From an uncultured Acidobacteriota bacterium (lineage in GTDB: Bacteria > Acidobacteriota > Vicinamibacteria > Vicinamibacterales > UBA2999), in NCBI GenBank assembly GCA_963772955.1, contig CAVYZF010000001.1:147860-211859 (forward strand): 64,000 nucleotides of DNA, in the 5' to 3' direction. Positions 4,322 through 60,215 of the stretch are shown in pieces (position 1 is the first letter of the stretch; each line of letters begins with the position of its first letter). Under the pieces are notes generated by a model, which saw nothing but the letters and a program-made list of their open reading frames with translations, made no database searches and had not been told where the DNA came from. The position numbers were made by a program, and so were the translations under genes.

Positions 4322-5361
4322 ATGAAAGTCGGTTCGATCGAACTGCCTTCGCCGTTCGTGGTGGCGCCTATGGCCGGCATGACGGACACGGCTTTCCGTC
4401 GGCTGGTCAAGCGACATGGCGGCTGCGGCCTTGTCGTGACGGAGATGGTGTCGTCGGAAGGGCTCGTACGCGGCATCGATCGAACACTCGAGTACGCCGA
4501 TACACCGAGGAAGAGCGCCCCGTTTCCATTCAGATCTTCGGTGGCGATCCAGGCAGGATGGCTGACGCTGCTCGAGTCGTGCAGGATATGGGTGCAGACA
4601 TCGTCGACATCAACATGGGTTGCCCCGTGCCGAAGATTGCCAAACACAACGCCGGCTGCAGCCTGATGCGTGAGCCCAATCATGCGGCTCGTGTGGTGGA
4701 AGCGATGGTCGAGGCCGTCACGATTCCGGTGACGGTGAAGATGCGCGCGGGGTGGACGGACAAGGATCGCAACGCGCCCGTGCTGGCAAGAAAGGTTCAG
4801 GATGCCGGCGCGTCAGCAATCACGATCCACGGTCGGACAGCGGAGCAGTCATACACTGGTCTGGCGGACTGGGATCTGGTTCGAGAGGTTGCCAGTGACC
4901 TGCAGATTCCCGTCTTTGGAAGCGGCGATTGTATCGAGCCCGAGCAGGTTGTTGAGCGAATGAAATCCGGCGTTGAAGGAGTGCTCGTCGGTCGCGGCGT
5001 TCTTCGCAATCCGTGGATTCTTGCTCAGGCCGCTGATCTCGTCGCTGGGCGAACCCCCCGGACGGTGACGATGCAGGAGCGAGGTCAGTTCCTGCTCGAC
5101 TACATCGATCTTCTTGTCGATCAGCGGGAACACGAGCAACAAGGCTTTCGTCATGTTGCGCCTGGCATGTCTCAGGCGGTTGTGCCCGCCTCAGGTCACC
5201 AGCGCTGGGTCATCAATAAGCTGCGAGCGCTCTGCGCGTGGTACTCGAAGGGCCTGGACTCGGGCTCGCATCTTCGTATCGCCGTCAACAGCGCGGAGAG
5301 CATCTCGCAGCTCCGTCACCTGATTGAAGACTTCTTCATGACCGCTCCGGCAACGGTCTAG
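4322..5361 (+). pseudogene. dusB: tRNA-dihydrouridine synthase (DusB-like), interrupted by an apparent 1-nt frameshift near 4490-4505
   Basis: Track ORFs 4322-4666 (frame 2) and 4558-5361 (frame 1) together form one Dus protein. The N-part reads VVAPMAGMTDTAFRRLVKRHGGCGLVVTEMVSSEGL. Frame 1 read upstream of the Met at 4558 gives YTEEERPVSIQIFGGDPGRMADAARVV...DINMGCPVPKI. The frame switch implies one missing base. Confidence 0.75.
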
Positions 5362-5367
5362 CGACCG

Positions 5368-5955
5368 ATGCAATCCGACGTTTCACGTCTTTTGCGCGAG
5401 ACTGCGGATGCGCTTCGAGTGATCAGCGAGAGCGACTACGCCGCGGCGGTAGAACGAGCGCTCAATCTCCTCGAGGAGGCCTTTCGCGCGGGACGGAGCC
5501 TCCTCGCCTTCGGGAACGGCGGCTCGTCGGCAGATGCACAGCATCTGTGTGCGGAGCTCGTCGGCCGCTTTCTCCTCGAGCGTCGAGCACTCCCAGCGGT
5601 GGCGCTGACAACGAATCAGGCGCTGCTCACCGCGTGGAGCAACGACTATCAGTTCGAAGATATCTTCGCGCGACAGATCGAGGGACTCGGCCGAACAGGT
5701 GACGTGGCGTGGGGGATCTCGACGAGCGGCAATTCCGCGAACGTCGTCAAAGGTCTTCGACGCGCACGAGAACTTGGGCTGCGAACGATCGGTCTGACCG
5801 GGTCAGGGGGCGGTCGCATGGCGGAGCACTGCGACGTCCTGATGGCTGTGCCGCTGACACAAACGCCCAGGATCCAGGAAGTGCACCTGGTGACGTTTCA
5901 CGCGATCTGTGGTGCGCTCGAGCAGCGGCTGTTTGGTGCGAGCTCAGTAGCGTGA
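5368..5955 (+). CDS. gmhA: D-sedoheptulose-7-phosphate isomerase (SIS domain, GmhA/DiaA family)
   Basis: SIS-domain motifs FGNGGSSADAQHLCAELVGRF and GISTSGNSANV. The length and C-terminal QEVHL..H pattern are typical of GmhA. Confidence 0.75.
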   Translation: MQSDVSRLLRETADALRVISESDYAAAVERALNLLEEAFRAGRSLLAFGNGGSSADAQHLCAELVGRFLLERRALPAVALTTNQALLTAWSNDYQFEDIFARQIEGLGRTGDVAWGISTSGNSANVVKGLRRARELGLRTIGLTGSGGGRMAEHCDVLMAVPLTQTPRIQEVHLVTFHAICGALEQRLFGASSVA

Positions 5956-7773
5956 AAACCCGCTGACCATACGATGATCGCCGGGCTGTGTGTCGGTCGG
6001 CCTGACATCGCGTCCACCGGCCAGCGCAAGCTTCCCAGACGAAGTCGTTCGAGCCTGTGAACGAACGAGCGCGACCAGGTGGCTTCGATCGATGGCCTGA
6101 CTCGCGGCTTCGCGAAGCGAGATCTGGCGACGGGTGACTGCGCGAGCGAGCGCTTCGTCCACCGATTTCATCTTTGCGGCGACGTCATTTTGCGTCCGTG
6201 CGAATCCAGTGAAGTCGCCGGACTCGATCATGCCGGACACTGAACCCGAGGCCAGGACGACGTCCTGAATCAGGGTTCGTCCGCCACCGAGGCGACGAAC
6301 ACTGCGATACCCGATCGCTGCACGGAACGAGGCGGCCAGCGCGCGGCGCACGTGCGACTCTGACCCCGCAAGCATACGAAGCGCTTCGACCGTTGTTGGG
6401 CCGACGACTCCCGCGATGACCAGACGACCACCGGCTGCGGCGAGCACCGCCGCCTGCAGCGACTGTTCGGCCTGGAGACCGGTCACGAGCAGAATATCCG
6501 GACTCTCCTGTGCTGCGCGGCGGATGGCTGCGGCGAAGTCCTTGTCCGTACCCGCGATGGTTCGCTGACTGACGAACGCACCGGTGATGTCGCCGTGCGA
6601 CCGGCTGCGTCGCTGCAGCGAAATCAGATAGCCGCCCCGATCCCGCCCACTCCAGTCCGCGACTGCCGCAGCGAGTGCTTCGACGTCCGCTTCGTTCGAC
6701 GCAGCCACGACGACGAGTCCATTCCCCTCGCACGCCGCGCGAACCTGTCTCGGAATGTGCTTGTGCAGGAGTCGCAGCGATGTTGACGGACGCAGATGAA
6801 GGATCAGGCCGCTGCCCTGCTGGTCCGAGAACACACGGCAGCTGATGTAGCCGAGTTCATCGTCCTCACGAACCCACTCGCCATCTGCGCGCGCTTCCCA
6901 AACGCCTTCCCCACCGCGCGTGAATGCCGCCACCGTGTCCTCGATGACCGAAGCCGCGACAGTCTCCTGGCTGATTGGCTGAATTCGTTCGTCGATACGA
7001 GCGGCCGCCGGCGATCCAGCTCTGAGGTAGAGCATCGTGGCACCGAGATCCGCAGCGTGACCAATCCATTCGAACAGGTCGAGTGCCGCGCTAACACTGG
7101 CAACGGGTCGTGGTGTGCGCAACGGTTTTTCTACACGAGTCACGACGGTGACCTCCGGCTGGCGAATGGGTTCCGGCCGAACTTCGCGGGGAGCGTCGAC
7201 AACGACCTCCTGTACTGGAGGAGGCATCGGTGCAGCCTCGGGTTCCGGTATGGATGCTGGCGTCGGCGGTTCGTAGGCAGTAACGATTTCAGGCTGCTCG
7301 ACTGGTGCGGGCTCCGGCTCCGGAATGTACGCCTGCGCAGGCTCTTCCTGAACTGGTTCTTCTCGTGCTGAGTAGTAAGCGGATGGTGCCGAGTAGCTGA
7401 TCTCCGGCTCTGGAGGCGCAGCAACTGGTGTCTCTTCGACAATCGGCGCCGGTGCTTCAACAGGTACCATCGATACGATCAGCTCGATGCAGAAATCATC
7501 ACCGACCCGTTCGGCTCTCGCCGTCAGTGGACGCGGGAAGGAAGTTGACGTGACAGCTTCACTGACGGATCCATTTGCCGCCAACTCGTGTCGGCCTGCG
7601 GACGAAAGAATCTGTTCCGCCAGCGCTTCCACCGCATTGACGGACAGGACCGCGGAGGCTACGTCATGACGGCGCTCGCCTGCTAACACGTGTGGCCGTT
7701 CACCGGCTCTCATGACCAGACGGTCCCCACCGGCACGTTCAAGGGCCGCACATAGCGACGGCATCAAGCTCAT
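5944..7773 (-). CDS. PilT/GspE-like protein with duplicated N-terminal module, Pro/Glu-rich linker and degenerate (Walker-A-less) ATPase core
   Basis: There are two PilT/GspE-N-like modules (GGDRLVMRAGERPHVLAGE... and GATMLYLRAGSPAAARIDE...), separated by a Pro/Glu-rich linker of about 120 aa. The C-terminal half resembles the PilT core by eye (GLVVVAA.., PDILLVTGL.., GRLVIAGVVGPT). No GxxxxGK[ST] occurs anywhere in the 609 aa. The 3' end overlaps the gmhA 3' end by 12 nt (convergent). Confidence 0.45.
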   Translation of the reverse strand: MSLMPSLCAALERAGGDRLVMRAGERPHVLAGERRHDVASAVLSVNAVEALAEQILSSAGRHELAANGSVSEAVTSTSFPRPLTARAERVGDDFCIELIVSMVPVEAPAPIVEETPVAAPPEPEISYSAPSAYYSAREEPVQEEPAQAYIPEPEPAPVEQPEIVTAYEPPTPASIPEPEAAPMPPPVQEVVVDAPREVRPEPIRQPEVTVVTRVEKPLRTPRPVASVSAALDLFEWIGHAADLGATMLYLRAGSPAAARIDERIQPISQETVAASVIEDTVAAFTRGGEGVWEARADGEWVREDDELGYISCRVFSDQQGSGLILHLRPSTSLRLLHKHIPRQVRAACEGNGLVVVAASNEADVEALAAAVADWSGRDRGGYLISLQRRSRSHGDITGAFVSQRTIAGTDKDFAAAIRRAAQESPDILLVTGLQAEQSLQAAVLAAAGGRLVIAGVVGPTTVEALRMLAGSESHVRRALAASFRAAIGYRSVRRLGGGRTLIQDVVLASGSVSGMIESGDFTGFARTQNDVAAKMKSVDEALARAVTRRQISLREAASQAIDRSHLVALVRSQARTTSSGKLALAGGRDVRPTDTQPGDHRMVSGFSRY

Positions 7774-8270
7774 AGGTCTGCGTCCTGCAAGGCTAAGGTG
7801 TCTTCGAATTGCAGTGCCGCGCGAAACACTGGATTCGGCGCGACTGCGTGCATCGACGATCGAATGACCGTGGCACGGAGAACCTTGCGAACGCCACCAT
7901 AACGAAGGAAGACGTCAACGGTTCGGCCGGGACACAATCTTTGATTGGTTTCGGCCAATAAGCCGCTCGCCGATAGATTCACGAGCCGCATCGGGAAGCC
8001 CGCGACGGCCAGTCGCAGTTCAGCCTTGAATTCGTGAGGCTCTCGGCGCTCGGCGCCTCTCCGCTCCTGGCGCTGTGAGGAAGGAGGTGGCGGGGGTGGC
8101 GGAGGCGGCTCCTCCACCGACGGAGGTGGAGCGGGTTCCAGCGCCGCCGCTTTTGGCGGGGCTGCACCCTGCCAGGTCGCCTCCAGACCAGCGATCAGAT
8201 CGTCCAACGAAGCTTCTTCGGGAAGCTTCACGACGATTTCGTCGTCAGGGTCTGGGAGCGAATCGCTCAT
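7770..8270 (-). CDS. PilZ-domain protein with proline-rich N-terminal half
   Basis: c-di-GMP-binding motifs RxxxR (RGAER) and NxSxxG (NLSASG), followed by a PilZ beta-barrel-like sequence. A run of nine consecutive Pro codons lies at 8082-8108. The stop overlaps the start of the downstream PilT-like gene (7770-7773). Confidence 0.7.
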   Translation of the reverse strand: MSDSLPDPDDEIVVKLPEEASLDDLIAGLEATWQGAAPPKAAALEPAPPPSVEEPPPPPPPPPSSQRQERRGAERREPHEFKAELRLAVAGFPMRLVNLSASGLLAETNQRLCPGRTVDVFLRYGGVRKVLRATVIRSSMHAVAPNPVFRAALQFEDTLALQDADL

Positions 8271-8544
8271 AAGTGTGTAAAAGTAGCAACCTGTTTGCCG
8301 GTTGAGCCTTAATTCGGCGTAGCAGCGTTTAGATGATAGATTGCACTAAAATTCGTAGACGTTCCGCAATCCTCAATCGAGCGTTCTTAAAGTGGCACCG
8401 CAGGGGACCAGGGAAACCGTGCAGTTGCAGAAAATCTGAAGTCACAGGCGACTTCAGTGTGATCTCCTCAACCTAATCGGCCTATTATCGGCCAGCAAGT
8501 AGTCCTCGGCGCCACTTCCCTGCGGCCGAGGTCGAGAGGCGCTC

Positions 8545-8907
8545 ATGGCGAAGATTCTGATCGTCGAGGACGACGACGCGACCAGGACCGGATATCGAGA
8601 GTTCCTGAAGCTTGCCGGTCACGACGTGATCGCAACCAGCACATATCAGGAGGGTCGCCAGGCGGCGGCCACGGAGAGCCCGGATCTGGTTATCGCCGAT
8701 CTACGCCTTGGTGGCTTCAATGGGTTACAGCTGCTACTCCTGAGTCCCGAGCCAATACCAACCATTATTGTGACAGGCTTCCACGACGAAGTGCTCGAGG
8801 CCGAGGCCCGCCGAGCCGGTGCGGACTACGTCGTCAAACCGATCTCGCCTTCCGGCCTCGTGACTCTCGTCAAGGAGAGGCTCGAGCGCAAGTCTGGGCC
8901 GCACTAA
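8545..8907 (+). CDS. Single-domain response regulator (CheY-like receiver)
   Basis: KILIVEDDD..., phospho-acceptor context DLVIADLRLGG, and conserved T/K positions (IIVTG..., VVKP). 120 aa with no output domain. Confidence 0.85.
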   Translation: MAKILIVEDDDATRTGYREFLKLAGHDVIATSTYQEGRQAAATESPDLVIADLRLGGFNGLQLLLLSPEPIPTIIVTGFHDEVLEAEARRAGADYVVKPISPSGLVTLVKERLERKSGPH

Positions 8908-9041
8908 GTCGCGCAAAATCGTGCGGGGCATCGATTACCCGATCAGCGTTTGCGTCAGAGGTACGGCTGAGCTACTCTGACCGCGGCGCCCGCGGTGTTG
9001 TCTCCACGAGAGGCGTCTTTCGTCGGAGCGATCGGGGCCTA

Positions 9042-10856
9042 ATGCTGTCGATAATCGAGCGTTTTGAGATAGATCCGGAACGGCGGCTGGCGGCAGCCTT
9101 GCAAGAACCTCGTCATCGTTCCCGTGCGGTTCTACGGGAATCGACGCTGATGTCGAACACCGAGAACCCGTCACTCGTGGCCCAGGAACCCTCGTCGTTC
9201 GAAATTGCTGTTCGTGACCGGTCGTGGGACTGGTTGCTTGAGCTGCGTCGACGGCTGAAGGTAGACCTCCTGCTCGTGGATAGCCGTCCGTCCGTGTTGC
9301 TCCCGACGTTGGGTGATCAGGCGGCGAGGCTCTCGGCAATGCTGGAGCATGGGGAGGGCGCTCTCTTGACCGCGATCGGTGCCTCACTCAGGGAACGCAC
9401 TTCCCAGGCGCTCGATCTCGGCGGACTGCAAATCATTTGTGTCCCAGTTGTCACGGAGCGCAACGCGTGCGGTGTGCTTCTGGTCGGACGGGTGAATCCC
9501 TCTCGTCTGGACACAACGGCATCACGCTCGCAACTGGAACTCGTCGCATCGTGGTTGACGGCGGCGGTGGATGCGCACCTCCTCAGCCCGCCAGCGTTTC
9601 CGTCGAGTGGCTTGAACCGTGTCGCACCGCTCGCGCAACTCCTTGGACAAGCTTCCGATCGTGAGTCGGACAGAGAGTTGATCCGACTGTTTGGTGAGGC
9701 GATCGCTGTGTGGCACGACATCGAGGTCAGTGGATACGTCGAGACAACGGCAGGTGTGTTTGCTCGCGACGTCACACTTCCCGGGACGAAGAAAGGCGAG
9801 AGGCCTGCAGTAATTCCGTCGGTGGGTTTACCCGATTCAACAGATCTTGCTCGCTTGCCGCAAGGCCATCTCGATCGATTTGGCCTGCCGGTCAACGACG
9901 ACGTCTTCGTGCGTCGCTTCAAGGGCAAAGACGGACGTTCGTGGCTGATGGTGTTCACGGGTGAGATCGGCGTGTACGATCTCCAACGCATCGGCGCCTA
10001 TGTCGCTCTACTCGATTTAGCGCTGTCACTCTCGACGAGCTCACTCACGTCGCGATTGACGAAGACGATCGCGGCTTGTCTTGCGACTGTCGACGCGGCG
10101 GAGACACAGGCGGCGCACGCGCTCGAGGAATTACGCACCGCGCTCGGCGCTGCCGCGGCGACGTTGACCATCGAATCGAGTGCTGGAGTGCCCGCACTTC
10201 GTGTCACGTCACCTGCGGGTGCGTCGGAAGTCGATACCGACACAAATGCGTTTCGACTCGTGCTCGTCAAACGCTCAGAACGGCATTACACTACGACCGT
10301 TTCGCTGGGACGCAATGAGAGCTTGCAGTTCACACCGAGGGATCACGCAGCAGCAAGTGTCGCGGCCACCATGTTCGATACATGGGCACCGGCGGCTCTC
10401 GGAGCAGCGCGCAAACGTCACGAACGGCGGTCGGCACCGCGCGGTTTCACAGAAATTCTCCAACGGTCTGCGGGTGAAGCGTTCGAGCGGGGAGCGCCCG
10501 TCGCGGTTGTCGTGCTCCTTATTCGCGACGCAGCATCGCTGCCTGGATCGACGCAGCGCTGGGTCGCGGGAATTCGAGCGCAGATGCGTGCATCCGATCT
10601 GGCGGGGTCGCTCGGTGAAGGAGAGATCGGCCTGCTGATGATCGACACGAGCGCCGAGCAGGCGAAGAGCATCGCCGAGCGTCTCAGAGCAGTTGTGGGG
10701 GGAAACCCTGGCGACGAGTCGATTCTCGTTGGTGTCGCCGCGCGGAATCCGGAACAAAATACGGTTGATGGCATCGTTCAGGACGCTCGCGAGGATGCGC
10801 TCGCCGGTACACGGCGCAGGCGATCGTCTGATTCTCCTCACGGAGTGAACCGCTGA
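9042..10856 (+). CDS. Large signalling protein with C-terminal degenerate GGDEF domain that retains an RxxD I-site
   Basis: The C-terminal ~170 aa look GGDEF-like (APVAVVVLLIRD...RASDLAGSLGEGEIGLLMIDTS...AERLRAVV). The GG[DE]EF position reads GEGEI, while RASD lies exactly 5 residues upstream, which is I-site geometry. The N-terminal ~400 aa have GAF-like stretches and are otherwise unassigned. The start is uncertain; an alternative ATG is at 9150 (MSNTENP). Confidence 0.4.
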   Translation: MLSIIERFEIDPERRLAAALQEPRHRSRAVLRESTLMSNTENPSLVAQEPSSFEIAVRDRSWDWLLELRRRLKVDLLLVDSRPSVLLPTLGDQAARLSAMLEHGEGALLTAIGASLRERTSQALDLGGLQIICVPVVTERNACGVLLVGRVNPSRLDTTASRSQLELVASWLTAAVDAHLLSPPAFPSSGLNRVAPLAQLLGQASDRESDRELIRLFGEAIAVWHDIEVSGYVETTAGVFARDVTLPGTKKGERPAVIPSVGLPDSTDLARLPQGHLDRFGLPVNDDVFVRRFKGKDGRSWLMVFTGEIGVYDLQRIGAYVALLDLALSLSTSSLTSRLTKTIAACLATVDAAETQAAHALEELRTALGAAAATLTIESSAGVPALRVTSPAGASEVDTDTNAFRLVLVKRSERHYTTTVSLGRNESLQFTPRDHAAASVAATMFDTWAPAALGAARKRHERRSAPRGFTEILQRSAGEAFERGAPVAVVVLLIRDAASLPGSTQRWVAGIRAQMRASDLAGSLGEGEIGLLMIDTSAEQAKSIAERLRAVVGGNPGDESILVGVAARNPEQNTVDGIVQDAREDALAGTRRRRSSDSPHGVNR

Positions 10857-11176
10857 TGGCGCTCGGGGATCGGCGTTCTCGCGTGCGACTGGAAGTCATC
10901 GGCGCTCTTTGGGCGACACTGGAGTTGACCGAGCCGGCGCGTGTGGTCAACATCAGCCGCGACGGTGCGCTCATCACTTCACCAGTGCCGATGCCGCCAG
11001 AATCAGTGCAGCCTCTGCACTTGAAGCTCGAAGGACGCGAGGTGACTGTCGATGCGCGCGTTCGTCACATCCGTCGAGTGTCCGGGCCCGACGAGCCCAT
11101 TCGATACCTTGTAGGCGTCGAGTTTCTTTCCCCTCCGCCAGCCCTTGTCCGAGCGTCGGACTGTCCTCAGGTATAG
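10856..11176 (+). CDS. Stand-alone PilZ-domain protein
   Basis: RxxxR (RSRVR) and NxSxxG (NISRDG) motifs; 106 aa. The ATG overlaps the upstream stop (TGATG 10854-10858), so the two genes are probably translationally coupled. Confidence 0.7.
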   Translation: MALGDRRSRVRLEVIGALWATLELTEPARVVNISRDGALITSPVPMPPESVQPLHLKLEGREVTVDARVRHIRRVSGPDEPIRYLVGVEFLSPPPALVRASDCPQV

Positions 11177-11349
11177 GGAGCGTTCTCGGAGGCAGGCCGA
11201 CGGAGGGAAAGTCTTCCCTGCTGAGTGTCTTAGCCCAGATTCGCCCAGACTTTCTGAGGACCGATCCTCGCGCGAAAGTCTCCTAAGACAGACCCATAAG
11301 TCCTTGAGTTACATAGCCTTGTTTTGGTAGACAAACGTCTACCGGAGTT

Positions 11350-11365
11350 TGGCGACTCGCTTGCA
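11350..11365 (+). promoter_or_regulatory. Candidate sigma-54 (-24/-12) promoter TGGCGA-N5-TTGCA
   Basis: TGGCGACTCGCTTGCA has GG and GC in the canonical positions of TGGCACG-N4-TTGCW, with exact spacing. It lies 76 nt upstream of the PilZ ATG at 11441. The predicted start is near 11376. Confidence 0.55.
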
Positions 11366-11440
11366 CTTCTAAACGGAAGCCTCAGAGCGGCAGGACATAC
11401 GGTCGGCCGCGAGAGGTTCGGCAGGTGACAGAGGAGTGGG

Positions 11441-11752
11441 ATGGAGGAACGGCGACGCGTCGCACGCCACCAGGTGAGCGAGGAATTCGCGAACCTGCCG
11501 GCCAACATGAGCGTGCGGGTACTCGACATCAGTACCGCAGGAGTGCTCCTGCAGTCTCCGCGGTTGCTCAATCCGGGCTCCCGCGGAAGCCTCCGCTTCA
11601 CGTTGGCTGGGGCACCGTTTCTGGCAGACATTCAGGTTCGACGCGTAACCCCAGGATCGGATGCAGGTTCCGGGTATCGGATTGGAGCCACGTTTGTTGG
11701 GATGACGCTGGAACACCGGCAGCTCATTGAACGGTTCATGAACAATGATTGA
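11441..11752 (+). CDS. Stand-alone PilZ-domain protein, translationally coupled to a sigma-54 activator
   Basis: RxxxR (RRVAR) and DxSxxG (DISTAG) motifs; 103 aa. A GAGGAG Shine-Dalgarno-like sequence precedes the ATG. Stop TGA 11750-11752 overlaps the ATG at 11745 of the next gene. Confidence 0.75.
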   Translation: MEERRRVARHQVSEEFANLPANMSVRVLDISTAGVLLQSPRLLNPGSRGSLRFTLAGAPFLADIQVRRVTPGSDAGSGYRIGATFVGMTLEHRQLIERFMNND

Positions 11753-12863
11753 TGGTGTCGCTGAAAGCAGCTCTCGGGTCAGCACGATCGGTGCGATCCG
11801 GCCGCGTTCGCATGTCCAACTGACCGGCCGCAGCGCAGAGGTCACGGCACTCGAGCAGGAGATCGACCGCGTCGCCCGGTCCGACGCAAAGGTTCTGGTC
11901 ACAGGCGAGAGCGGAGTTGGCAAGGAAATCGTGGCGCGCGCGATCCACTCGCGCGGACCGCGAGCGAGCCATGTCTTCGCACCAGTCAATTGCGCTGGTT
12001 TGCCTGAGACGCTCCTCGAGTCCGAACTGTTTGGTCACGTGAAGGGCAGCTTCACAGGCGCTTACCGCGACAAACCAGGAAAGCTCGAGACTGCCCACAT
12101 GGGCACGATCTTCCTGGACGAAGTCGGCGAGATGACGCTGCGGATGCAGGGTCTTCTCCTGCGCTTCCTCGAGACGGGTGAGTTACAGAAGGTTGGCGCC
12201 GATGGCAGTGGCCGCATCGTCAACGTCCGCGTGATCGCAGCGACCAATCGCGACCTGCGCGACATGATCAAGCAGGGGACGTTCAGAGAGGACCTGTTCT
12301 ACCGTCTGAACGTCATTCACATCGTTGTGCCGCCGCTGCGGGATCGTCGTGAAGACATCCCCGTTCTGGCGAGTCAGTTCTTGACGCAATTCACCGCTGC
12401 GGGACGCTCATCGATCACGACGATCTCGCCAGAGGCTATGAAAGCGCTCACCGAGTACTCGTGGCCGGGGAACGTGCGCGAGCTCGAGAACGTGATCGAG
12501 CGACTCGTGGTGACGGTGAGTGGTTCGGCGATCGGCGTCGAACACCTGTCGTCTGAAATCAGAGCCTACGATGCGGTCCTTCTGCGTCCGAAGCGAGAGC
12601 GTCGCCGGACAGTAGCCGACGACCTTTACAAGCGGATGATTGAACAACATGAGTCCTTCTGGACGGCCGTATATCCGCTGTTCATGGACAGAGAAATCAC
12701 TCGCGCGAACGTTCGCGAGGTCGTGCGTCGGGGACTCGAGGAAGCACGGGGCAACTACAAGATTGTCGCGCGGCTCTTCAACATGGAAGCGCGCGACTAC
12801 AAGCGATTCCTCAACTTCCTTCGGAAGCACGACTGCCAGATTCCGTTCAAGGAATACCGCTAG
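11745..12863 (+). CDS. Sigma-54-dependent transcriptional activator (bEBP) without N-terminal sensory domain
   Basis: AAA+ sigma-54 interaction domain with Walker A GESGVGKE, a GSFTGA loop (GAFTGA variant), Walker B IFLDEVGEM and RVIAATNRDL...FREDLFYRLNV. Only about 55 aa precede Walker A. The C-terminal helical DNA-binding-like tail reads GNYKIVARLFNMEARDYKRFLNFLRKH. Confidence 0.85.
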   Translation: MIDGVAESSSRVSTIGAIRPRSHVQLTGRSAEVTALEQEIDRVARSDAKVLVTGESGVGKEIVARAIHSRGPRASHVFAPVNCAGLPETLLESELFGHVKGSFTGAYRDKPGKLETAHMGTIFLDEVGEMTLRMQGLLLRFLETGELQKVGADGSGRIVNVRVIAATNRDLRDMIKQGTFREDLFYRLNVIHIVVPPLRDRREDIPVLASQFLTQFTAAGRSSITTISPEAMKALTEYSWPGNVRELENVIERLVVTVSGSAIGVEHLSSEIRAYDAVLLRPKRERRRTVADDLYKRMIEQHESFWTAVYPLFMDREITRANVREVVRRGLEEARGNYKIVARLFNMEARDYKRFLNFLRKHDCQIPFKEYR

Positions 12864-12895
12864 CAATATCCCCGCTCCCCACAGCAGCGACCACG

Positions 12896-12927
12896 GAGGT
12901 CTTGGTTTGTGCATAATCCAAGACCTC
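12896..12927 (+). terminator. Hairpin downstream of the activator gene (10-bp stem GAGGTCTTGG / CCAAGACCTC, 12-nt loop)
   Basis: A perfect inverted repeat 33 nt after stop 12863. No clear U-tract follows, so its function as an intrinsic terminator is uncertain. Confidence 0.35.
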
Positions 12928-13028
12928 GATCGCTTGTGAGGTGCTTCCTGGACGTTGATCGATCCGCCGTCGACTCACAGGACGAGCCTTCAGTGAAAAG
13001 GTGAGAATCAGGCGATTTTCGCGTCCAA

Positions 13029-13043
13029 GGGCACGCTTGTTGC
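13029..13043 (+). promoter_or_regulatory. Candidate sigma-54 promoter GGGCACG-N4-TTGC
   Basis: gGGCACGcttgTTGCc matches TGGCACG-N4-TTGC at every conserved position except the first T. It lies 80 nt upstream of the GTG start at 13123, which is preceded by GGGAG. The predicted start is near 13055. Confidence 0.6.
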
Positions 13044-13122
13044 CACCTCATCCTGGCGTGGAAGGGGACGCTGTCTATCTGGCGTTGGTACAAGGGAATA
13101 TCGATAGAACCCAGGGAGTTTC

Positions 13123-14664
13123 GTGAGCAGCGATTCCCAGAGAGGGAACGATTATCTTCCCGCCGGAGGATTTCATCGCATTGTGTCAGCCGATGAGCCT
13201 GGGCCATGCAGTCGGCGCCTTAGCCGCGAACAGCGTCGAGCCGTGCTCGAAGTACGGGAAAAGGTCAGCGCCAAAGACCGGCCGCAAGAGTTTCTGCAAG
13301 ACCTCGTCACCCTGATCGGGCAGATCATCCGCGTCAAGGTTGCGGTCGCTGGTAAACGAGGCCGATCCTGGGTGATCGGCGCGGAGTCGACCGCCGAACC
13401 TCCGATTACTGTTTACGCCGCCGGCGGGCCACATCCTTTCGATCGCATGAGCGCCACTCCGGGCCTTCGCGTGGAGCTGTGGCGAACGATTGATCGAGAC
13501 TGGACGCTCGTAAGCCTGTCAAGTCAGCCCGATCCGCCGGTCATCCTGGTACTCGATGGCGACTGGACACCGTGCGCGCTCGTCTTTCGAGATCTCGCCC
13601 GGAGCTTCTTCGTCGGCGATCGTGCAGAGGAGTCCTCGAGTCCCGGTGTCGATGCCATCTCCCAACATCTGACCCGCGCTCTCGCGGATACCTCAGGGCT
13701 TGCTGCCGTCGGAGAAGTGGTGCTGCATCACGTCGTGCAGGCGGTGCCGAGCGGAATGGCTTCACTTGCTGTGGCTGCGGCCGACGGCGAGCTGTCGATT
13801 GTCGCCACACATGGCTATCCGCGTGCCCTCGTGGAGCACCTTCGAATTCCAGCAGGGAGCGGCGTCATCGGCGCGGTTCACGTCTCGAGAATGCCATTGC
13901 TCGTGCCAGATGTCGCGGCCACACCAGGCTTGGACCGGCGTCGCTCGCGCTATCGAACAGGATCCTTTGCGGCGGTTCCTATCGTCGCCGGCGCTGAATC
14001 TCTGGGTGTCGTATCGCTCACCGATCGCCTCACGCCTGGTCCATATACAACTGAAGATCTCAACGCCCTGGCAGTACTCCTGGCTCCCGCTGCTCTCGCG
14101 CTCGGAAGAGAGCGCGTATGGCGAGAGGCCCAGGCGTACGCGCAGGCCGCTGTGATTGATCCGGTAAGCGGATTGTTCAACCGAAGATACTTCCAGGCGC
14201 GGCTCGATGAAGAACTCCAGCGCGCGATTCGTCAGCTGACGTCGGTCGCGCTGCTAATGGTCGATCTCGATGGGTTCAAGAGCATCAACGATCGCTTCGG
14301 GCACGTCGCAGGCGATCTCGTGATACGCGACATCTCCGAGATTCTCCGTCGCTCAGTCCGCATCTTCGATGTTTGCACTCGCTTTGGCGGTGAGGAATTC
14401 GCCGTGATGATGCCGGGAGGAACGGCGGAAAGCGCGGGAACGATCGCGGAGCGCATCCGCGAGCGAGTAGAGGCTTACCAGAGAAGCGAATCCGATCTCT
14501 CCGACCTCAGCGTGACCGCCAGCATTGGCGTCGCCGTGTCTCCACCGGGCGTGACCGCCCGCGACTTGATAGAGAGAGCTGATCGAGCCCTCTACCATGC
14601 GAAGAAGGCAGGGAAGAATCGCGTCAGCACCGCGACCAGCGACGGCAGTGTTCTGCCTGCCTAG
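13123..14664 (+). CDS. GAF-GGDEF diguanylate cyclase (GGEEF active site, RxxD I-site present)
   Basis: GAF-like segment (...GSGVIGAVHVSRMPLLVPDV...AVPIVAGAESLGVVSLTDR). GGDEF domain with DPVSGLFNRRYF, LLMVDLDGFKSINDRFGH and RIFDVCTRFGGEEFAVMMPG (RxxD 5 residues before GGEEF). Confidence 0.85.
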   Translation: MSSDSQRGNDYLPAGGFHRIVSADEPGPCSRRLSREQRRAVLEVREKVSAKDRPQEFLQDLVTLIGQIIRVKVAVAGKRGRSWVIGAESTAEPPITVYAAGGPHPFDRMSATPGLRVELWRTIDRDWTLVSLSSQPDPPVILVLDGDWTPCALVFRDLARSFFVGDRAEESSSPGVDAISQHLTRALADTSGLAAVGEVVLHHVVQAVPSGMASLAVAAADGELSIVATHGYPRALVEHLRIPAGSGVIGAVHVSRMPLLVPDVAATPGLDRRRSRYRTGSFAAVPIVAGAESLGVVSLTDRLTPGPYTTEDLNALAVLLAPAALALGRERVWREAQAYAQAAVIDPVSGLFNRRYFQARLDEELQRAIRQLTSVALLMVDLDGFKSINDRFGHVAGDLVIRDISEILRRSVRIFDVCTRFGGEEFAVMMPGGTAESAGTIAERIRERVEAYQRSESDLSDLSVTASIGVAVSPPGVTARDLIERADRALYHAKKAGKNRVSTATSDGSVLPA

Positions 14665-14991
14665 GACGTTTCCTTAATTGTCGGGCTCGAGTGGCTTGTC
14701 GCCGTTAGAGCTCTGGTACCCTCCTGAATTCAGCCCAACCCTAGGTTCCTGAGAAGTTGTGGCATTTGCGTGACCTCTGCCGTGAGATAATCCACGCAAA
14801 CTTATGCATAAGCTGGTGTTCCTGCACATGACCAAAGAATCGTTAATCTAGTGATTGTCGCTCGATACGCGGATTTGGCGCAGAAGTGTGATCTTTGACA
14901 CGACTTTAGCGGACTTTACCGTTGACCTTAGTCGCTTCAAAAAGGCAGACTTATTCCCTCCTGCTTATCTGAGATATTTGGAGTCATTGAG

Positions 14992-16185
14992 ATGTCGACA
15001 TTGTCCTCACCCCGAACACCCCGTAATCTTCCCCTGCTTCTTGGCGAGAGCCCAGCGATCACCTCGCTCCGGCGAGAGATCGAGGCAGCAGCTCGAACGG
15101 ACGCTAAGGTCCTGGTGCTGGGGGAGACGGGAGCCGGGAAGGAAGTCGTTGCGCGACTAATCCACGAACACAGCACGAGATCCGCGCGAGGTTTCGTTGC
15201 AGTGAACTGTAGTGGTATTCCGGAAACGCTGCTCGAATCGGAACTGTTCGGTCATACGCGGGGAAGCTTCACAGGCGCGTATCGTGACAAGCCCGGACTT
15301 GTCCGTCAGGCCGACCGGGGGACCTTGTTCCTCGACGAACTCGGCGAGATGAGCTTGCGCATGCAGGCAGTTCTGCTGAGATTTGCGGAGACGGGCGAGA
15401 TCCAGACCATCGGTGTCGATGGCGTTACCGGTCGCTCCGATGTCCGCCTGATCACGGCGACGAACCGCAACCTGCGTGAGCGCATCGACGCGGGCGTCTT
15501 CCGCGAGGATCTCTACTTCCGCCTCAACATCATTCAGATTCATGTCCCGGCGCTGCGCGAGCGCCCGGAAGACGTGATGCTGTTGTTGCGACACTACCTC
15601 CGCAAGGCAAGTGAGACGCATCGCCTCCATTGCCCCGAGCTGACGTCAGAGGCTGAGCAGGTGCTCAGCGCGTACGCCTGGCCTGGAAATGTCCGCGAGC
15701 TGAAGAATCTTGCCGAGCGACTCGTCGTACGGGAGTGGGATCGACCGATCGCTCCCGAAGATCTCCCGACGGAGATTCGCGGTAGCCGCGACGCCGTCTC
15801 GGTCATGCCGAGCTCCAACGTCGTGTTCAATCAGGAATCGGTTCCAACGGCCCGTCGCCTCGAGCGTGGCTCAGGTGCCGCCGATCGACTGTGGGACCGC
15901 TTAATCGCGGGCGAGAACTTCTGGACTGTCGTGCACCAGCCATTCAAGGCACACGAGCTGACCCGTGACGATCTCGCGGCGCTGATTCACCGCGGCCTCG
16001 AGCACACTCGCGGTAGCTATCGGGCCTTGCTCGGTGTGTTTGGCTTGCCCCCGACCGACTACAAGCGCTTCCACGCGTTCTTGTATCAGCAGAACTGCAA
16101 TTTGCCTGTAGGACCGTATCGCACGGCGCGCGCAACGTTGCGTCGGCAGGATCGTCCGCCGTCCGTCTACACCCCGGCCTGCTAG
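14992..16185 (+). CDS. Second sensor-less sigma-54-dependent activator (paralog of 11745-12863)
   Basis: Walker A GETGAGKE, GSFTGAYRDKPG loop, LFLDELGEM and VRLITATNRNL...FREDLYFRLNI. About 45 aa precede Walker A. The C-terminal tail (GSYRALLGVFGLPPTDYKRFHAFLYQQNC) has the same unusual type as the first activator. Confidence 0.85.
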   Translation: MSTLSSPRTPRNLPLLLGESPAITSLRREIEAAARTDAKVLVLGETGAGKEVVARLIHEHSTRSARGFVAVNCSGIPETLLESELFGHTRGSFTGAYRDKPGLVRQADRGTLFLDELGEMSLRMQAVLLRFAETGEIQTIGVDGVTGRSDVRLITATNRNLRERIDAGVFREDLYFRLNIIQIHVPALRERPEDVMLLLRHYLRKASETHRLHCPELTSEAEQVLSAYAWPGNVRELKNLAERLVVREWDRPIAPEDLPTEIRGSRDAVSVMPSSNVVFNQESVPTARRLERGSGAADRLWDRLIAGENFWTVVHQPFKAHELTRDDLAALIHRGLEHTRGSYRALLGVFGLPPTDYKRFHAFLYQQNCNLPVGPYRTARATLRRQDRPPSVYTPAC

Positions 16186-16206
16186 CGAAGACCGACTCAG
16201 AAGTAA

Positions 16207-16232
16207 GCGGGAGCGACACGAGTCGCTCTCGC
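16207..16232. terminator. Hairpin between convergent genes (11-bp stem including one G-U pair, 4-nt loop)
   Basis: GCGGGAGCGAC-ACGA-GTCGCTCTCGC lies between stop 16185 (+) and stop 16239 (-). This is a plausible bidirectional terminator. Confidence 0.45.
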
Positions 16233-16238
16233 TTCCAC

Positions 16239-16595
16239 TTAAAGCTCGTCCTCAATTAGCGTATTCAGTCCGATGTGTCCGTCATGCACGTCGAAGTCGT
16301 ACATCAAGGCCTGCTCGAAGCAGTCAAAGAATCGGGACCCAAGTTCGGTGTGTGCGGGGTGCTCGAGGTAGGCGCGAAGACCCGCGAGATCTTCGAATTC
16401 GAGTACGGCCGCGTGCGTGTAGTCCTCACGCATGAGTTGTTCGTACGCGCGCCCGTGCGTGCGTCGCCGCCCGATTCGGGCTCGTTTGATCGTACCGATG
16501 TTGTCGATCGCGCTGGCGAACGCCTTCGCGAGTGCTTGTCGCTGATCTTCTCCGAGTCCAGATCTCGGCCTGAACAACACGATGTGAAGAATCAT
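16239..16595 (-). CDS. Dabb-family (stress-responsive alpha/beta barrel) protein
   Basis: MILHIVLFRPRSGL...AFASAIDNIGTIKRARIGRR...AAVLEFEDLAGLRAYLEHPAH is a typical Dabb pattern. 118 aa. Confidence 0.6.
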   Translation of the reverse strand: MILHIVLFRPRSGLGEDQRQALAKAFASAIDNIGTIKRARIGRRRTHGRAYEQLMREDYTHAAVLEFEDLAGLRAYLEHPAHTELGSRFFDCFEQALMYDFDVHDGHIGLNTLIEDEL

Positions 16596-44875: not shown

Positions 44876-47120
44876 CTACTCGCGCGACGACCGTACCGCC
44901 GGAGTGGCAGGCTCCGTCACGCGCATCACAAAGTCGAACATCGTCTGGTGGAGATGCGCGATCAGTCGAGGATCGCCGAACCCGTGCCGCTGCTTCGCGT
45001 AGACCATCATCTCGAACGGCTTGCCGGCTTTCTGCAACTCGTACGCAAACTGCACCGAGTTCTGCATGTGGACGTTGTCGTCCATCGTGCCGTGAATCAG
45101 CAGCATTTTCGCGTTCAACCGATCGGCCGCGAAACGAGGGGCCGTGCGTCGATACCCGTCGGCATTGTGTTGCGGCAGCTTCATCAGCCGCTCAGTGTAG
45201 ACCGAGTCGTAGTCCCGCCAGTCCGTCACTGGTGCCCCGACGATGCCTGCGGACCAACTGGTGCTGTGCGTCAGGGCATACGCCGTCATAAAGCCACCGT
45301 AGCTCCATCCGCTGAGCACGAGGCGTGACGGGTCCACCCACGACTGCTGTTTCAACCAGGTCACGCCGTCCTCGAGGTCCTGCAACTCCAGCTCACCGAG
45401 CCGACCTGTACACGGGCCACTGCGATTCTGCGCCCTTTCCGCTCGCGCTCCTGTTGTCGAGAACCCAGCAGACGATCCCGTGCTGGGCGAGCATCTGCAG
45501 GAACAGGTAGTCAGGACCGCCCCATGAATCGCGAACCTCCGCCAAACCGGGCCCTGCGTAGGTGAATTGGTAGATCGGATAGCGGCGTGACGGATTGAAA
45601 TCCAGCGGCTTGATCAACATTCCGTCCATCACGAATCCGTCGCGCGTACGTACCTGCACGAACTCGGGCGGCGTCAGCTTGAAATCGGCCAGAGCGGGGA
45701 CCGCGTTGCCGTCGATCACGCGGGTTTCGGAGCCATCCGATCGATGGAGGCGGACCTGCGTCGGCGTCGTGACGTTGCTCCAGACGCCCACGTACTGCGA
45801 GAAATCGGGACTGAAGATCGCGCGGTTCGTGCCACCACTTTGCGAGAGTCGCGTCATCCCGGTGCCATCGAGCCGGATGCGGTAGATGTCAGTGGCGATC
45901 GAATTCCGCTCCGGCGAGGAGAAGTAGGCGACGTTGTTCGCCTCGTCCACGCCGAAGAAGCTGCGGACCTCCCAGCGTCCGGTCGTGATCTGTTTCAGCA
46001 TCTCGCCCGCTGCGCTGTAGCGATACAGGTGCTTGAAGCCGCTGCGTTCGCTGAACCAGAGGAAGGAGCCGTCCTTCAACCACACAGGGTTGCCGTTCTC
46101 GTTCACCCACGCGGACGTCGTCTCTCGAAGCACACGCCGTGCGCTCCCGTTCGATGCGTCGGCCAGATTCAGGTCGAGCCATGTCTGCTCGCGGTCCTGC
46201 ACCTGATGAACGATCTGCGTCGAGTCGGGAGTCCAGCCGACGTTGACAATCAGAAACTCGGTTGACGAGTACGAGCTGAGATCGACCCAGGACGGACCGT
46301 CGCCGGTGACACGGGCCATCCCCAGTTTCGCCGTGGGATTGGGATCGCCGGCTTTCGGGTAGTCGGTGACTTCCAGTGCCGGCCGATACGGAATGTGATC
46401 GACGACCGTGTACTCCGGAACAGGCCGTTCATCGAGTTGAAGGAACGCGAGTCGACTCGAATCCGGACTCCACCAATAGCCCTTGAACTGTCCGCGACCG
46501 TAGATCTCCTCCTGATAGAGCCAGTCGAGCTTTCCGTTCAGCAGCTCACGGGTTCCATCTGTCGTGATCGCCTGCTCACGTTGTGTGGCGATCTCGACGA
46601 CGTGCAGGTTATTGCCTCGCACGAAGGCGACTCGTCGTCCATCAGGGCTGAAGGTTGGGACCTCCTCTTCACCTGACGCTGTCGTGAGTCTCTCGGCCTT
46701 CGCTGCCGCAAACGAGTAGAAGTAGAGATCGTCGGCGATTGTCACCAGCGCACCGGTGCGCGCCGGGTTGAGCGTGAGATCGCTCGAGCGCGCAAGCTCC
46801 GCGGCCTCGTCTCGAGTCACGCCAGGGAGCGCCGCAAGCGCGGTCTCCATCGAGCCGGCATCGAACAAGGGCGAGGTGCGGCCTGACCCCGCGTCGACCT
46901 TGAGCCACTCGACTCCGTTCGCCCCGCGTCGTCGAGAGAGATAGGTCGACGGATTGAGCCACGTGATGCCCGTGTCGGGTGATCCGCTGAAGTTGATGCG
47001 ACGGTTCGGGCTGTAGATGTCATCGACGGTGAGACGTCGAGATCCGACCTGCGCATCGACGGTGACCAGCGTCGCGATGATGCTCAGAGAGAAGGCCGCG
47101 CCGAGAGTTCCCTTTCCCAT
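44876..47120 (-). pseudogene. Dipeptidyl-peptidase IV-like S9B serine peptidase, split by a +1 frameshift near 45396-45405
   Basis: The N-part (45393-47120) carries a signal peptide and a DPP-IV beta-propeller-like region. The C-part (44876-45385) carries the nucleophile elbow SGWSYGG and LIHGTMDDNVH. The C-part frame read upstream gives RLGELELQDLEDGVTW, which continues the N-part (..QWPVYR). Deleting plus-strand A45404 restores one ORF. Confidence 0.8.
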
Positions 47121-58918: not shown

Positions 58919-60215
58919 CTAATTTGTTGCCGGTCTGAACGATCGCCTGCGACGCCGACGCCGGCGTCGTGGACGCGGGAGCTCTCCCGCGCCTTCCTCC
59001 GCGCTCGCAGTCACGCCCGAGGCTTCGATGAATCCGCGCCAATGCTCGACCGCCTCGGGAGCCTGCCCGTGAATCTCGAGCCATGCGAGCGCTTCACGAA
59101 ACGGACCGCGGTGCATCAACGCGCGCCGCGCGCGCGGTGACAGTCGTGAGTCGAGCAGGCGGCGCTGCAGCCCCAGGATCTGGCGGAAGCGCTCAACGTC
59201 CCTGCGTGCGAGCGGCAAGATCCCGAGCGTGAGCCGCGGCTCCTTCTCGAGTTCAGTGCTGGCGGCTTGACGCGGATGACCGGTCATGCCGAGCGGCACG
59301 ATCAGCGAGCCGAGAAGCACGGCGTTGCTCAATGTGTCGGGGATCTCTTCGTGTCGCTTGCGATAGGCGTCCAACGCTGCCAGCGACTGCCACAGTCGCC
59401 CGGCCGCGCCCTTTTGCAGATCGTGAGCAATGGGCTCGAGCAATTTGCGCTCGGCCATCATCCGGAACGCGTATTCCGACGCACCCGATCGAAGCAGCTT
59501 GTAGAACTCCTCGATCAATCGTGCCGGCGCGCTGCGCGCGATCTCCGCCCGGCTGCTGGCCATCGCCTGGTCGATCGGCGCGTCGATGGTGAACCCGAGC
59601 CGCGCAGCCATGGCGATGGCGCGCAGCATTCGCACCGGGTCCTCGTGAAAACGCTCTGCCGGGTCACCGATCGAACGGACGATGCCGGCGCGCAGGTCTT
59701 CGAGTCCGCCGGTGTAGTCGATGATCGAGAACGTTCCGATGTCGTAGAACAGTGCGTTGATGGTGAAGTCGCGCCGGAAGGCATCCTCCTCCGGTGTGCC
59801 GAACGTATTTTCGCGATGGATGAGGTGACTCGGTCCCGCGTTTCCCTCGTCCGGCGTCCCCTGCTTGTTCTGCGGTGGACTCCTCCGCTGCAGCCAGTTC
59901 CTCCGCCGTCACCTTCCGCCGAAAGGTTGCGACCTCGATCGTCTTCGTCCCGAACCGCACGTGAGCGAGCCGGAAGCGGCGGCCGATGACCCAGCAGTTC
60001 TTGAAGAGACGCTTGACCTGGTAGGGATGCGCCGAGGTGCCGATGTCGAAGTCCTTGGGACGCCGGCCGAGCAGCAGGTCCCTGACGCTCCCGCCCACCA
60101 GATACGCGACGTAGCCGTTTTGATGGAGGCGATAGAGAACTTTGAGCGCGTCGGGATCGATTTGCGATCGTGAGAGCGAGTGTGCGGCTCGCTCGACGAT
60201 GACCGGGTCACCCAT
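58919..60215 (-). pseudogene. pcnB: Poly(A) polymerase I-type nucleotidyltransferase, split by a +1 frameshift around 59840-59900
   Basis: The N-part reads [21 protein letters not shown]...[19 protein letters not shown]. The second frame read upstream of its first Met gives [27 protein letters not shown]...DPVRMLRAI, which continues into ORF 58919-59635. The tail is basic (PRRRRRRRRRS). One possible repair is deleting plus-strand A59879. Confidence 0.8.

Follow-up and report, generated by a model that had tools for sequence, protein, structure and literature searches.

In Pseudomonas syringae, two paralogous bacterial enhancer-binding proteins (bEBPs) without sensory domains, HrpR and HrpS, are encoded at one locus and are controlled by an anti-activator and an anti-anti-activator, HrpV and HrpG. 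Sensor-less activators of this kind are expected to have partner proteins (PMC4641369). Cyclic di-GMP (c-di-GMP) is described, in the reviews consulted, as reaching sigma-54 by binding to a bEBP (FleQ, FlrA, VpsR, BerB) or by way of an upstream kinase (ShkA acting on TacA). Direct binding by bEBPs such as FleQ and VpsR, noted in a first-pass annotation of the DNA described here, is confirmed in the literature (PMC10333796; PMC5552954). A stand-alone PilZ protein acting on a transcription factor is reported for TssZ and HinK (PMC10912698). Here we analyze a locus in a 64 kb stretch of contig CAVYZF010000001.1 from an uncultured Acidobacteriota bacterium (the whole stretch is called the window), in which the gene for a stand-alone PilZ protein immediately precedes that for a sensor-less bEBP. 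Comparative genomics anchors this PilZ/bEBP module well, and the sequence comparisons suggest that PilZ may act as a detachable c-di-GMP sensor of the bEBP. Our literature search, which took in two reviews and a PilZ survey preprint, found no characterized PilZ/bEBP partner pair, and the first-pass annotation had likewise known of none.

The PilZ gene lies at positions 11441-11752 on the plus strand of the window and encodes 103 residues (open reading frame (ORF) listing; Pfam PF07238 at 43.5 bits, above the curated cut-off of 22.5, with E = 4.3e-11 and profile positions 9-100 of 102 covered). A Shine-Dalgarno-like GAGGAG can be read from the sequence at 11431-11436 (plus strand), 5 nt 5' of its ATG. 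The bEBP gene, identified by the ORF listing and Pfam, follows at 11745-12863 on the same strand and encodes 372 residues. The two ORFs share 8 nt (ATGATTGA), so the ORF listing reproduced both the coordinates and the overlap that had been annotated. Because an in-frame TGA stands at 11739-11741, the ATG at 11745 is the earliest possible start of the bEBP. Positions 11207-12927 form a self-contained operon, made up of a candidate enhancer, a sigma-54 type promoter, the two genes and a closing hairpin. PilZ and bEBP are co-transcribed and, in the clade of the window, translationally coupled. The coupling proposed in the first-pass annotation therefore stands for this clade with its 8-nt overlap, but it is not universal, as in relatives the two genes may stand 4 to 140 nt apart.

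The bEBP/PilZ family was found in Vicinamibacterales (Acidobacteriota), in metagenome-assembled genomes from soil. We counted the linkage over 39 species-level genomes that have an orthologous bEBP (at least 65% identity) and readable upstream DNA; loci from the contigs or genomes of relatives carry labels of the form Lnnn. PilZ stands immediately 5' of the bEBP in 30 of these 39 genomes, which bears out the linkage that had been predicted from the window. The usual order of the cassette is a gene for a 568-residue protein, PilZ2 (106 residues), PilZ (103 residues) and bEBP. The 568-residue protein is missing from L025, L027 and L050, and both PilZ genes are missing from L019 and L026. In a distant bEBP subgroup (65-69% identity), the gene stands back to back with a second bEBP, without PilZ. 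Clusters drawn at 90% identity hold 160 PilZ and 360 bEBP member sequences, and the module is abundant in soil metagenomes.

The junction between the two genes varies considerably among the 36 loci that have both. The clade of the window has the 8-nt overlap, a second clade has a 4-nt ATGA or GTGA overlap, and elsewhere the genes are separated by 4 to about 60 nt, or by 140 nt in one metagenome contig. PilZ nevertheless ends in a stop codon in 36/36 loci, and all three relative reading frames were found. With junctions so varied, all three frames in use and the stop always kept, comparison of the loci indicates that PilZ and bEBP are separate genes, and that their split is ancestral and maintained. 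In one distant relative, a stretch of about 20 nt (ACAGAGCCAATGAGGGAATG) occurs twice, as a perfect tandem duplication, within the 28-nt spacer between PilZ and bEBP (L001:8309-8350).

The first-pass annotation had cautioned that a fusion of PilZ, AAA+ and helix-turn-helix (HTH) domains might have been broken here by an indel. The arithmetic of this caveat is correct: removal of one T at 11749/11750 gives ..FMNNDDGVAESS.., a single continuous frame. A precedent is on record in Desulfovibrio, where a response-regulator receiver (REC)-bEBP gene was split by a 1-nt deletion (PMC4641369), and the window carries at least one frameshifting indel elsewhere, a 1-nt deletion at 4501 in dus (267 residues here versus 346 in a 96.7%-identical Illumina contig). 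However, the comparison with this same contig gave zero indels across 11426-12963. The identical 372-residue bEBP is recorded on 11 contigs; the three that we read come from three different ENA or JGI samples, and all carry the same 103-residue PilZ and the same overlap. Our PilZ search of 5.8 billion proteins returned 168 homologues, and the 120 listed (98% to 53% identity) are mostly 101-103 residues long, with PilZ as the sole recorded domain. A full HMMER scan of 1.84 billion representatives revealed no PilZ-AAA+ fusion among its best 150 matches, only PilZ-PilZ fusions. The architecture is therefore split throughout the 36 loci, the 120 homologues listed and the best 150 representatives; a survey of orthologs for split versus fused forms had been suggested. 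A single gene split by a 1-nt insertion, whether as a sequencing error or as a pseudogene, can accordingly be given next to no credence: independent Illumina assemblies carry the identical junction, the PilZ stop persists through three junction types and three frame relations, and no fused form appeared. Elsewhere in the window, for which five other frameshifted genes had been claimed, this comparison bears out the deletion in dus. Two pairs of neighboring ORFs on the same strand, 44876-45385 with 45393-47120 and 58919-59635 with 59664-60215, are possible additional cases of a split gene. The dus deletion and these possible splits would fit an indel-prone assembly.

PilZ has every hallmark, in sequence and predicted fold, of a c-di-GMP binder, and we regard it as a putative c-di-GMP receptor. 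The canonical motifs that had been noted, RRxxxR (R5..R9) and DISTAG (D29-G34), are present, and R4, R5, R9, D29, I30, S31 and G34 never vary, either among 36 aligned homologues, which reach down to 52% identity, or among the orthologs derived from the loci. R93, R98 and F99, in the C-terminal helix, are also invariant, and this unusually conserved helix may be a candidate partner surface. AlphaFold2 models the protein (pLDDT 80.8) as a beta-barrel, in which DSSP assigns five long strand segments, and a C-terminal helix that spans residues 90-102. Foldseek matched the model with a probability of 1.0 to the PilZ domains of Alg44, PP4397, MrkH, PlzA and BcsA; the best matches in the PDB are the c-di-GMP-bound PilZ domain of Alg44, PP4397, MrkH and PlzA. 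PilZ2, a second stand-alone PilZ protein of 106 residues, is encoded just upstream (10856-11176, plus strand; Pfam PilZ, 7.3e-8) and is conserved beside PilZ in nearly all loci. Its DRRxxxR is invariant; its second motif is partly degenerate, and the serine of that motif varies. PilZ2 is fused to PilZ in some relatives and to the bEBP in none.

The bEBP consists of an AAA+ domain (Sigma54_activat, PF00158, residues 27-193, nt 11823-12323, 1.3e-64, followed by AAA_lid_14) and a C-terminal domain. Pfam detected no REC, GAF, PAS or V4R domain, in agreement with the sensor-less architecture first annotated. The Walker A sequence GESGVGKE starts at residue 54, DEVGE is found from residue 125, at the expected Walker B position, and the loop reads GSFTGA from residue 101, invariant in 16 aligned family members. 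GSFTGA is among the natural loop variants that retain the ability to activate (PMC4641369). The first 25-26 residues are variable, except for M-I or M-D in two clades. The last 90-93 residues or so (about nt 12582-12860) form a basic stretch (pI 10.2) that hardly varies, even where overall identity falls to 65%. Pfam HTH_8 was not detected on the bEBP at E values up to 0.01; the protein weakly matches the C-terminus of NF038230 (8.6e-6), and its GNYKIVARLFNMEARDYKRFLNFLRKH resembles a Fis-type HTH. The family bears no more than generic names in the sources. We considered and rejected an assignment to PspF, for which the scores fall far below the cut-offs (TIGR02974, 252.8 bits versus 443.55; NF008622, 212.1 versus 529). 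The named NCBIfam equivalogs of bEBPs, such as NorR, NifA, AtoC, NtrC and the PEP-CTERM regulator PrsR, likewise all stay below cut-off in the 25 listed of 30 matched; the best score among the models listed is that of NorR, 333 against a cut-off of 476.

Upstream of PilZ, a sigma-54 type -24/-12 promoter (TGGCGACTCGCTTGCA) lies at 11350-11365 on the plus strand, 75 nt before the ATG, and transcription would be expected to start near 11376. Both the sequence and the spacing annotated at first pass were reproduced. Within the window alone, the -24/-12 pattern is weak evidence, with 3 matches against 0.86 expected, a number that 6 of 100 shuffled sequences reach. Conservation in relatives, however, places this promoter far beyond chance: TGGC-N7-TTGCA is found upstream of PilZ in 30/36 loci, with TGGC and TTGCA invariant and the spacer variable. 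In the remaining six loci, the spacer between PilZ2 and PilZ is short, and a similar element stands at a greater distance upstream. Consensus sigma-70 promoters were absent from 7500-16500, where this consensus is in any case uninformative for Acidobacteriota, and no riboswitch or other known RNA was found in the leaders, as Rfam had no match in the window.

An inverted pair of half-sites precedes this promoter and has the geometry expected of a bEBP enhancer (upstream activating sequence), for which we propose it as a candidate on the strength of an exact-copy search and an alignment. The distal half-site, GAAAGTCT, lies at 11207-11214 (plus strand). Its inverted partner, located by alignment, lies 40 nt further on at 11247-11254 (minus strand), where the plus strand reads the reverse complement, AGACTTTC. 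A third copy of GAAAGTCT at 11274-11281 (plus strand) belongs only to the closest clade, in which it begins 74 nt before the first base of TGGC (the window, L006, L007, L008 and L034). These three, at 11207, 11247 (minus strand) and 11274, are the only exact copies in the 64 kb and all lie within 11207-11281. Among relatives, AAGTCT has fixed starts in 21/26 loci, 141 nt ahead of the first TGGC base on the plus strand and 103 nt ahead of it on the minus strand. Within 200 nt upstream of the promoter, the hexamer reaches a density of 10.2 per kb over the 26 loci, versus a background of 0.20 per kb. The composite AAGTC[TC]-N30-36-[AG]GACTT occurs once per locus in 836 kb. Wherever it is present, it stands upstream of the PilZ promoter, with the single exception of L040, in which it precedes the promoter of the 568-residue protein gene.

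Between the half-sites and the promoter, a perfect 16-nt palindrome, GTAGACAAACGTCTAC, occupies 11327-11342, ending 7 nt before the -24 element; it is the sole exact match in the window. It is conserved in the close clade, where it reads GTAGACAAACGTCTR, and in L019, where it reads GCAGACAAACATCTGC; clade II has a weaker form. The enhancer half-sites share its AGAC/GTCT core, as does a conserved TTGTCT element that precedes the promoter of the 568-residue protein gene. At the other end of the operon, just after the bEBP stop, a strong hairpin without a U-tract lies at 12896-12927 (plus strand). The 82-nt stretch 12864-12945 folds with -33.6 kcal/mol (z = -4.5), and 0/200 shuffled sequences fold as well. 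The hairpin is probably the end of the operon. We also considered this inverted repeat as a second enhancer and rejected the idea, because relatives keep the pairing while the sequence changes, which favors a terminator-like hairpin.

Three departures from the usual cassette tie PilZ to the bEBP more closely than to its other neighbors: a possible duplication of the module, di-PilZ fusions that precede the bEBP, and a natural deletion of pilZ. In one clade (at least L009, L010, L012, L016 and L017), a second, diverged PilZ-like ORF is followed by a bEBP at the same locus, consistent with duplication of the module as a unit. The extra module of L010 (1176-3303; similar in L009, L012, L016 and L017) lies between the REC gene and the 568-residue protein gene and consists of a 94-residue ORF, a 114-residue PilZ-like ORF, in which RxxxR looks degenerate, and a 433-residue bEBP; a sigma-54-like element stands upstream of it in L009 and L016. 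Natural PilZ2-PilZ fusions are represented by about 18 proteins of 197-246 residues, and in both of the fusion contigs examined the bEBP ortholog follows directly. The di-PilZ ORFs at L066:5001-5708, L067:1542-2201 and L032:about 5200-5894 encode 219-235 residues; the L032 read-through sits in a long-read genome bin and might be an assembly error. L019 is a natural pilZ deletion, in which both PilZ genes are gone: L019:5660-6001 retains the enhancer pair, the palindrome and TGGCGACTTGATTGCA, together with a remnant of about 30 nt from the 3' end of pilZ, directly before the bEBP. The loss of pilZ with the bEBP retained fits a modulatory rather than an essential role for PilZ. L019 is labeled Bifidobacteriaceae yet carries Vicinamibacterales cassette genes and is probably mis-binned.

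Given the linkage, the coupling, the possible duplication of the module and the natural pilZ deletion, we propose that PilZ may directly control the bEBP as a detachable c-di-GMP sensor, a reading that we judge as apt to prove right as wrong. The sensor-less bEBP would be active by default, like PspF or HrpR/S, and PilZ, probably together with PilZ2, would bind to it, so that c-di-GMP would set its oligomerization or its ATPase activity. PilZ free of c-di-GMP would inhibit the bEBP, and high c-di-GMP would release or activate it. The bEBP would in this way regulate its own operon, using the inverted AAGTCT/AGACTT enhancer to act on the promoter, and the shared operon would yield activator and anti-activator in fixed proportion. 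The downstream diguanylate cyclase, behind a sigma-54-like element, could close a feedback loop. More tentatively, and with somewhat less conviction, we suggest a lineage-wide split-sensor design with cyclase feedback, possibly switch-like, in which two PilZ proteins, a stand-alone REC and a GAF/degenerate-GGDEF protein surround two or three sensor-less bEBPs, and in which PilZ, by itself or paired with PilZ2, serves as the detachable c-di-GMP subunit.

Several observations weigh against this proposal. The direction of the c-di-GMP effect is a guess; activation at high c-di-GMP is favored because export genes run on from the bEBP in one distant relative. Nine of the 39 orthologous bEBP loci have no PilZ upstream, and the best 150 representatives include no PilZ-bEBP fusion, which would have argued for an interaction. 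A conserved N-terminal docking peptide was not found on the bEBP, as its residues 1-25 are variable. The AAGTCT pair could be bound by the second bEBP of the locus. In addition, AAGTCT shows no enrichment in front of the promoter of either the 568-residue protein gene or the cyclase gene, so a shared regulon lacks support; a looser GTCT[CT]C core that recurs upstream of both is too short to trust.

Another possibility would be that PilZ and bEBP are co-transcribed yet independent, with PilZ and PilZ2 acting as effectors on something else, such as a machine for polysaccharide synthesis or export or the degenerate-GGDEF protein, and placed in the operon of the regulator only to be co-expressed. 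The PilZ domain of Alg44, which is the best match of PilZ among solved structures, controls a polysaccharide synthase, and in distant relatives the cassette is set within exopolysaccharide genes; in one distant contig, a polysaccharide-export gene overlaps the bEBP stop and is followed by Wzz/GNVR, ParA-type and priming-transferase genes. PilZ2, moreover, is coupled to the 568-residue protein and not to the bEBP, and the nine bEBPs without PilZ would be readily accommodated. However, the adjacency is kept in the clade of the window, where no polysaccharide genes are near the locus and the remainder of the window seems, judging only by how the ORF translations begin, to be housekeeping. The second PilZ-like ORF and bEBP of one clade, the fused PilZ2-PilZ that still precedes the bEBP in two contigs, and the lack of any other visible input to this sensor-less bEBP also speak for a link between the two proteins. 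We therefore regard independent action as unlikely, though it deserves serious attention. The context in distant relatives suggests exopolysaccharide as the output of the module.

In two further readings, the PilZ proteins do not act through the bEBP. The AAA+ domain might itself sense c-di-GMP, as in FleQ, FlrA, VpsR and BerB, leaving PilZ as a parallel effector or a c-di-GMP buffer; such binding by bEBPs is established, and the AAA+ domains of FleQ are among the closest solved relatives of the bEBP (1e-66). In FleQ, the arginine after Walker A is followed by an asparagine, whereas the bEBP has an alanine there (GKEIVARAI) and asparagine occurs only in one clade. As direct sensing also leaves unexplained why PilZ is kept immediately upstream, we find it improbable. 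Alternatively, PilZ and PilZ2 could form a MrkH-like, c-di-GMP-dependent DNA-binding pair that acts at the palindrome or the AAGTCT pair and modulates the promoter without touching the bEBP. Natural di-PilZ fusions exist, MrkH is among the structural matches, a conserved palindrome is present at 11327-11342 and PilZ is very basic (pI 10.96). On the other hand, this high pI comes mostly from the c-di-GMP-binding arginines, the pI of PilZ2 is 8.0 and no DNA-binding motif is evident. L019, furthermore, retains the palindrome and the enhancer after losing both PilZ genes, so another protein presumably reads them. A MrkH-like pair is thus a rather remote prospect.

The surroundings of the operon offer a picture of a c-di-GMP/sigma-54 hub in which the sensory domains are separate proteins. 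The first-pass annotation of the operon had left out PilZ2, the degenerate-GGDEF protein, the further sigma-54-like elements, the cyclase and the second bEBP. Three further sigma-54-like elements were found by a position-weighted scan and are conserved across loci. One, of sigma-54 type (TGGCGGCAGCCTTGCA, 9088-9103, plus strand), precedes the gene of the 568-residue protein, and its TGGC and TTGC are invariant in 19 aligned loci. This gene (9150-10856, plus strand) ends in a stop that overlaps the start of PilZ2 by 1 nt; a gene call of 604 residues from 9042 probably starts too early, because it would contain its own promoter. The 568-residue protein is conserved and has been found in Vicinamibacterales alone. 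Pfam recognizes no domain in it, its 208 homologues are all unnamed, and no named family was found for it. Its model (pLDDT 77.8) has three GAF/PAS-like modules and a GGDEF-fold domain, and its best structural match is a phytochrome-linked diguanylate cyclase (8e-13). The GGDEF is degenerate, and RASD-x5-GEGEI aligns to RxxD-x5-GGEEF. The protein thus has the form of a degenerate cyclase in which, as in PelD, the inhibitory-site motif is kept, and like PelD it may be a c-di-GMP receptor.

Downstream of the operon, a GAF-GGDEF diguanylate cyclase (13123-14664, plus strand; Pfam GGDEF 1.1e-44 and GAF) has a GGEEF motif and an RxxD site (RIFD), looks active by its sequence and is probably a local source of c-di-GMP. 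The second sigma-54-like element, GGGCACGCTTGTTGCC, lies 79 nt before this gene at 13029-13044 (plus strand) and was found in 10 loci, although it is below the score threshold in L008 and L034; being palindromic (GGCA..TGCC), it could be an operator instead of a promoter. The second sensor-less bEBP (14992-16185, plus strand, 397 residues) is 50% identical to the first, has the GSFTGA loop and a divergent C-terminal domain, and is linked to the first in most loci. A stand-alone REC protein (8545-8907; Pfam) is conserved in the locus. Together with the second bEBP it suggests a general split-sensor design and, possibly, a pairing of bEBPs like that of HrpR/S. The third element, on the minus strand at 8300-8285, stands about 15 nt from the annotated ATG of the gene for a 166-residue protein that has a proline-rich linker and, at its C-terminus, a PilZ domain. 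This gene and that of a 609-residue protein overlap by 4 nt (5944-8270, minus strand); the pair is conserved beside the locus and divergently transcribed, and the 609-residue protein has no recorded Pfam match in matching contigs.

If our proposal is correct, a trans-acting PilZ subunit would constitute a third, modular route from c-di-GMP to sigma-54 transcription and the first PilZ adaptor that gates an AAA+ transcription activator. It would also add to the short list of partner-controlled sensor-less bEBPs (PspF-PspA, HrpRS-HrpV). In Vicinamibacterales, a widespread and barely studied acidobacterial order, the module probably governs decisions on exopolysaccharide or biofilm. Since its parts are small and its promoter and enhancer are defined to the base, the hypothesis is directly testable in vitro or in a heterologous host.

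Among known systems, PspF-PspA offers a close parallel in design: PspF is active by default, is controlled in trans by a partner that binds to the AAA+ domain and is autoregulated through sigma-54, and the present bEBP likewise consists of an AAA+ and a putative DNA-binding domain only. The differences are that the candidate partner here is a PilZ domain and not the coiled coil of PspA, that the input would be c-di-GMP and not membrane stress, and that partner and activator share one operon; the bEBP, besides, scores below the PspF cut-off. HrpR/HrpS resembles the locus in that two bEBPs are accompanied by two small proteins, here PilZ and PilZ2. No sequence relation of these to HrpV or HrpG is expected, however, the C-terminal domains of the two bEBPs differ markedly here, and hetero-oligomerization of the pair is speculation. 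MrkH of Klebsiella is a c-di-GMP-dependent activator built of two PilZ-type barrels, which recalls the PilZ2-PilZ fusions of relatives. MrkH binds DNA itself and acts with the housekeeping RNA polymerase, whereas the present locus has a dedicated bEBP and sigma-54 promoters.

With FleQ (and FleN), FlrA, VpsR and BerB, the module shares the control of a bEBP by c-di-GMP, often in the service of exopolysaccharide or biofilm genes, and an AAA+ domain close to that of FleQ. In those systems the bEBP itself binds c-di-GMP (PMC10333796), whereas here the sensor would be a separate PilZ protein; the FleQ-type N-terminal domain is absent, and the gene lists of the locus contain no FleN-like gene. TssZ (PA0012) is, like our PilZ, a single-domain protein, and it is reported to be an adaptor that binds a transcription factor, HinK, and inhibits it at low c-di-GMP (PMC10912698). 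HinK, in contrast, is a LasR-type regulator and not an AAA+ sigma-54 activator; moreover, the abstract of that study gives no sign that tssZ and hinK are genetically linked, and the partner was obtained by a yeast two-hybrid screen (PMC10912698), whereas linkage is our main evidence. Finally, DVUA0025/DVUA0024 of Desulfovibrio vulgaris presents the same arrangement of a sensor domain gene immediately upstream of a sensor-less bEBP gene (PMC4641369). There the arrangement is a strain-specific 1-nt deletion of a fused REC-bEBP (PMC4641369), whereas the split between PilZ and bEBP appears, from the comparison of loci, to be ancestral and conserved.

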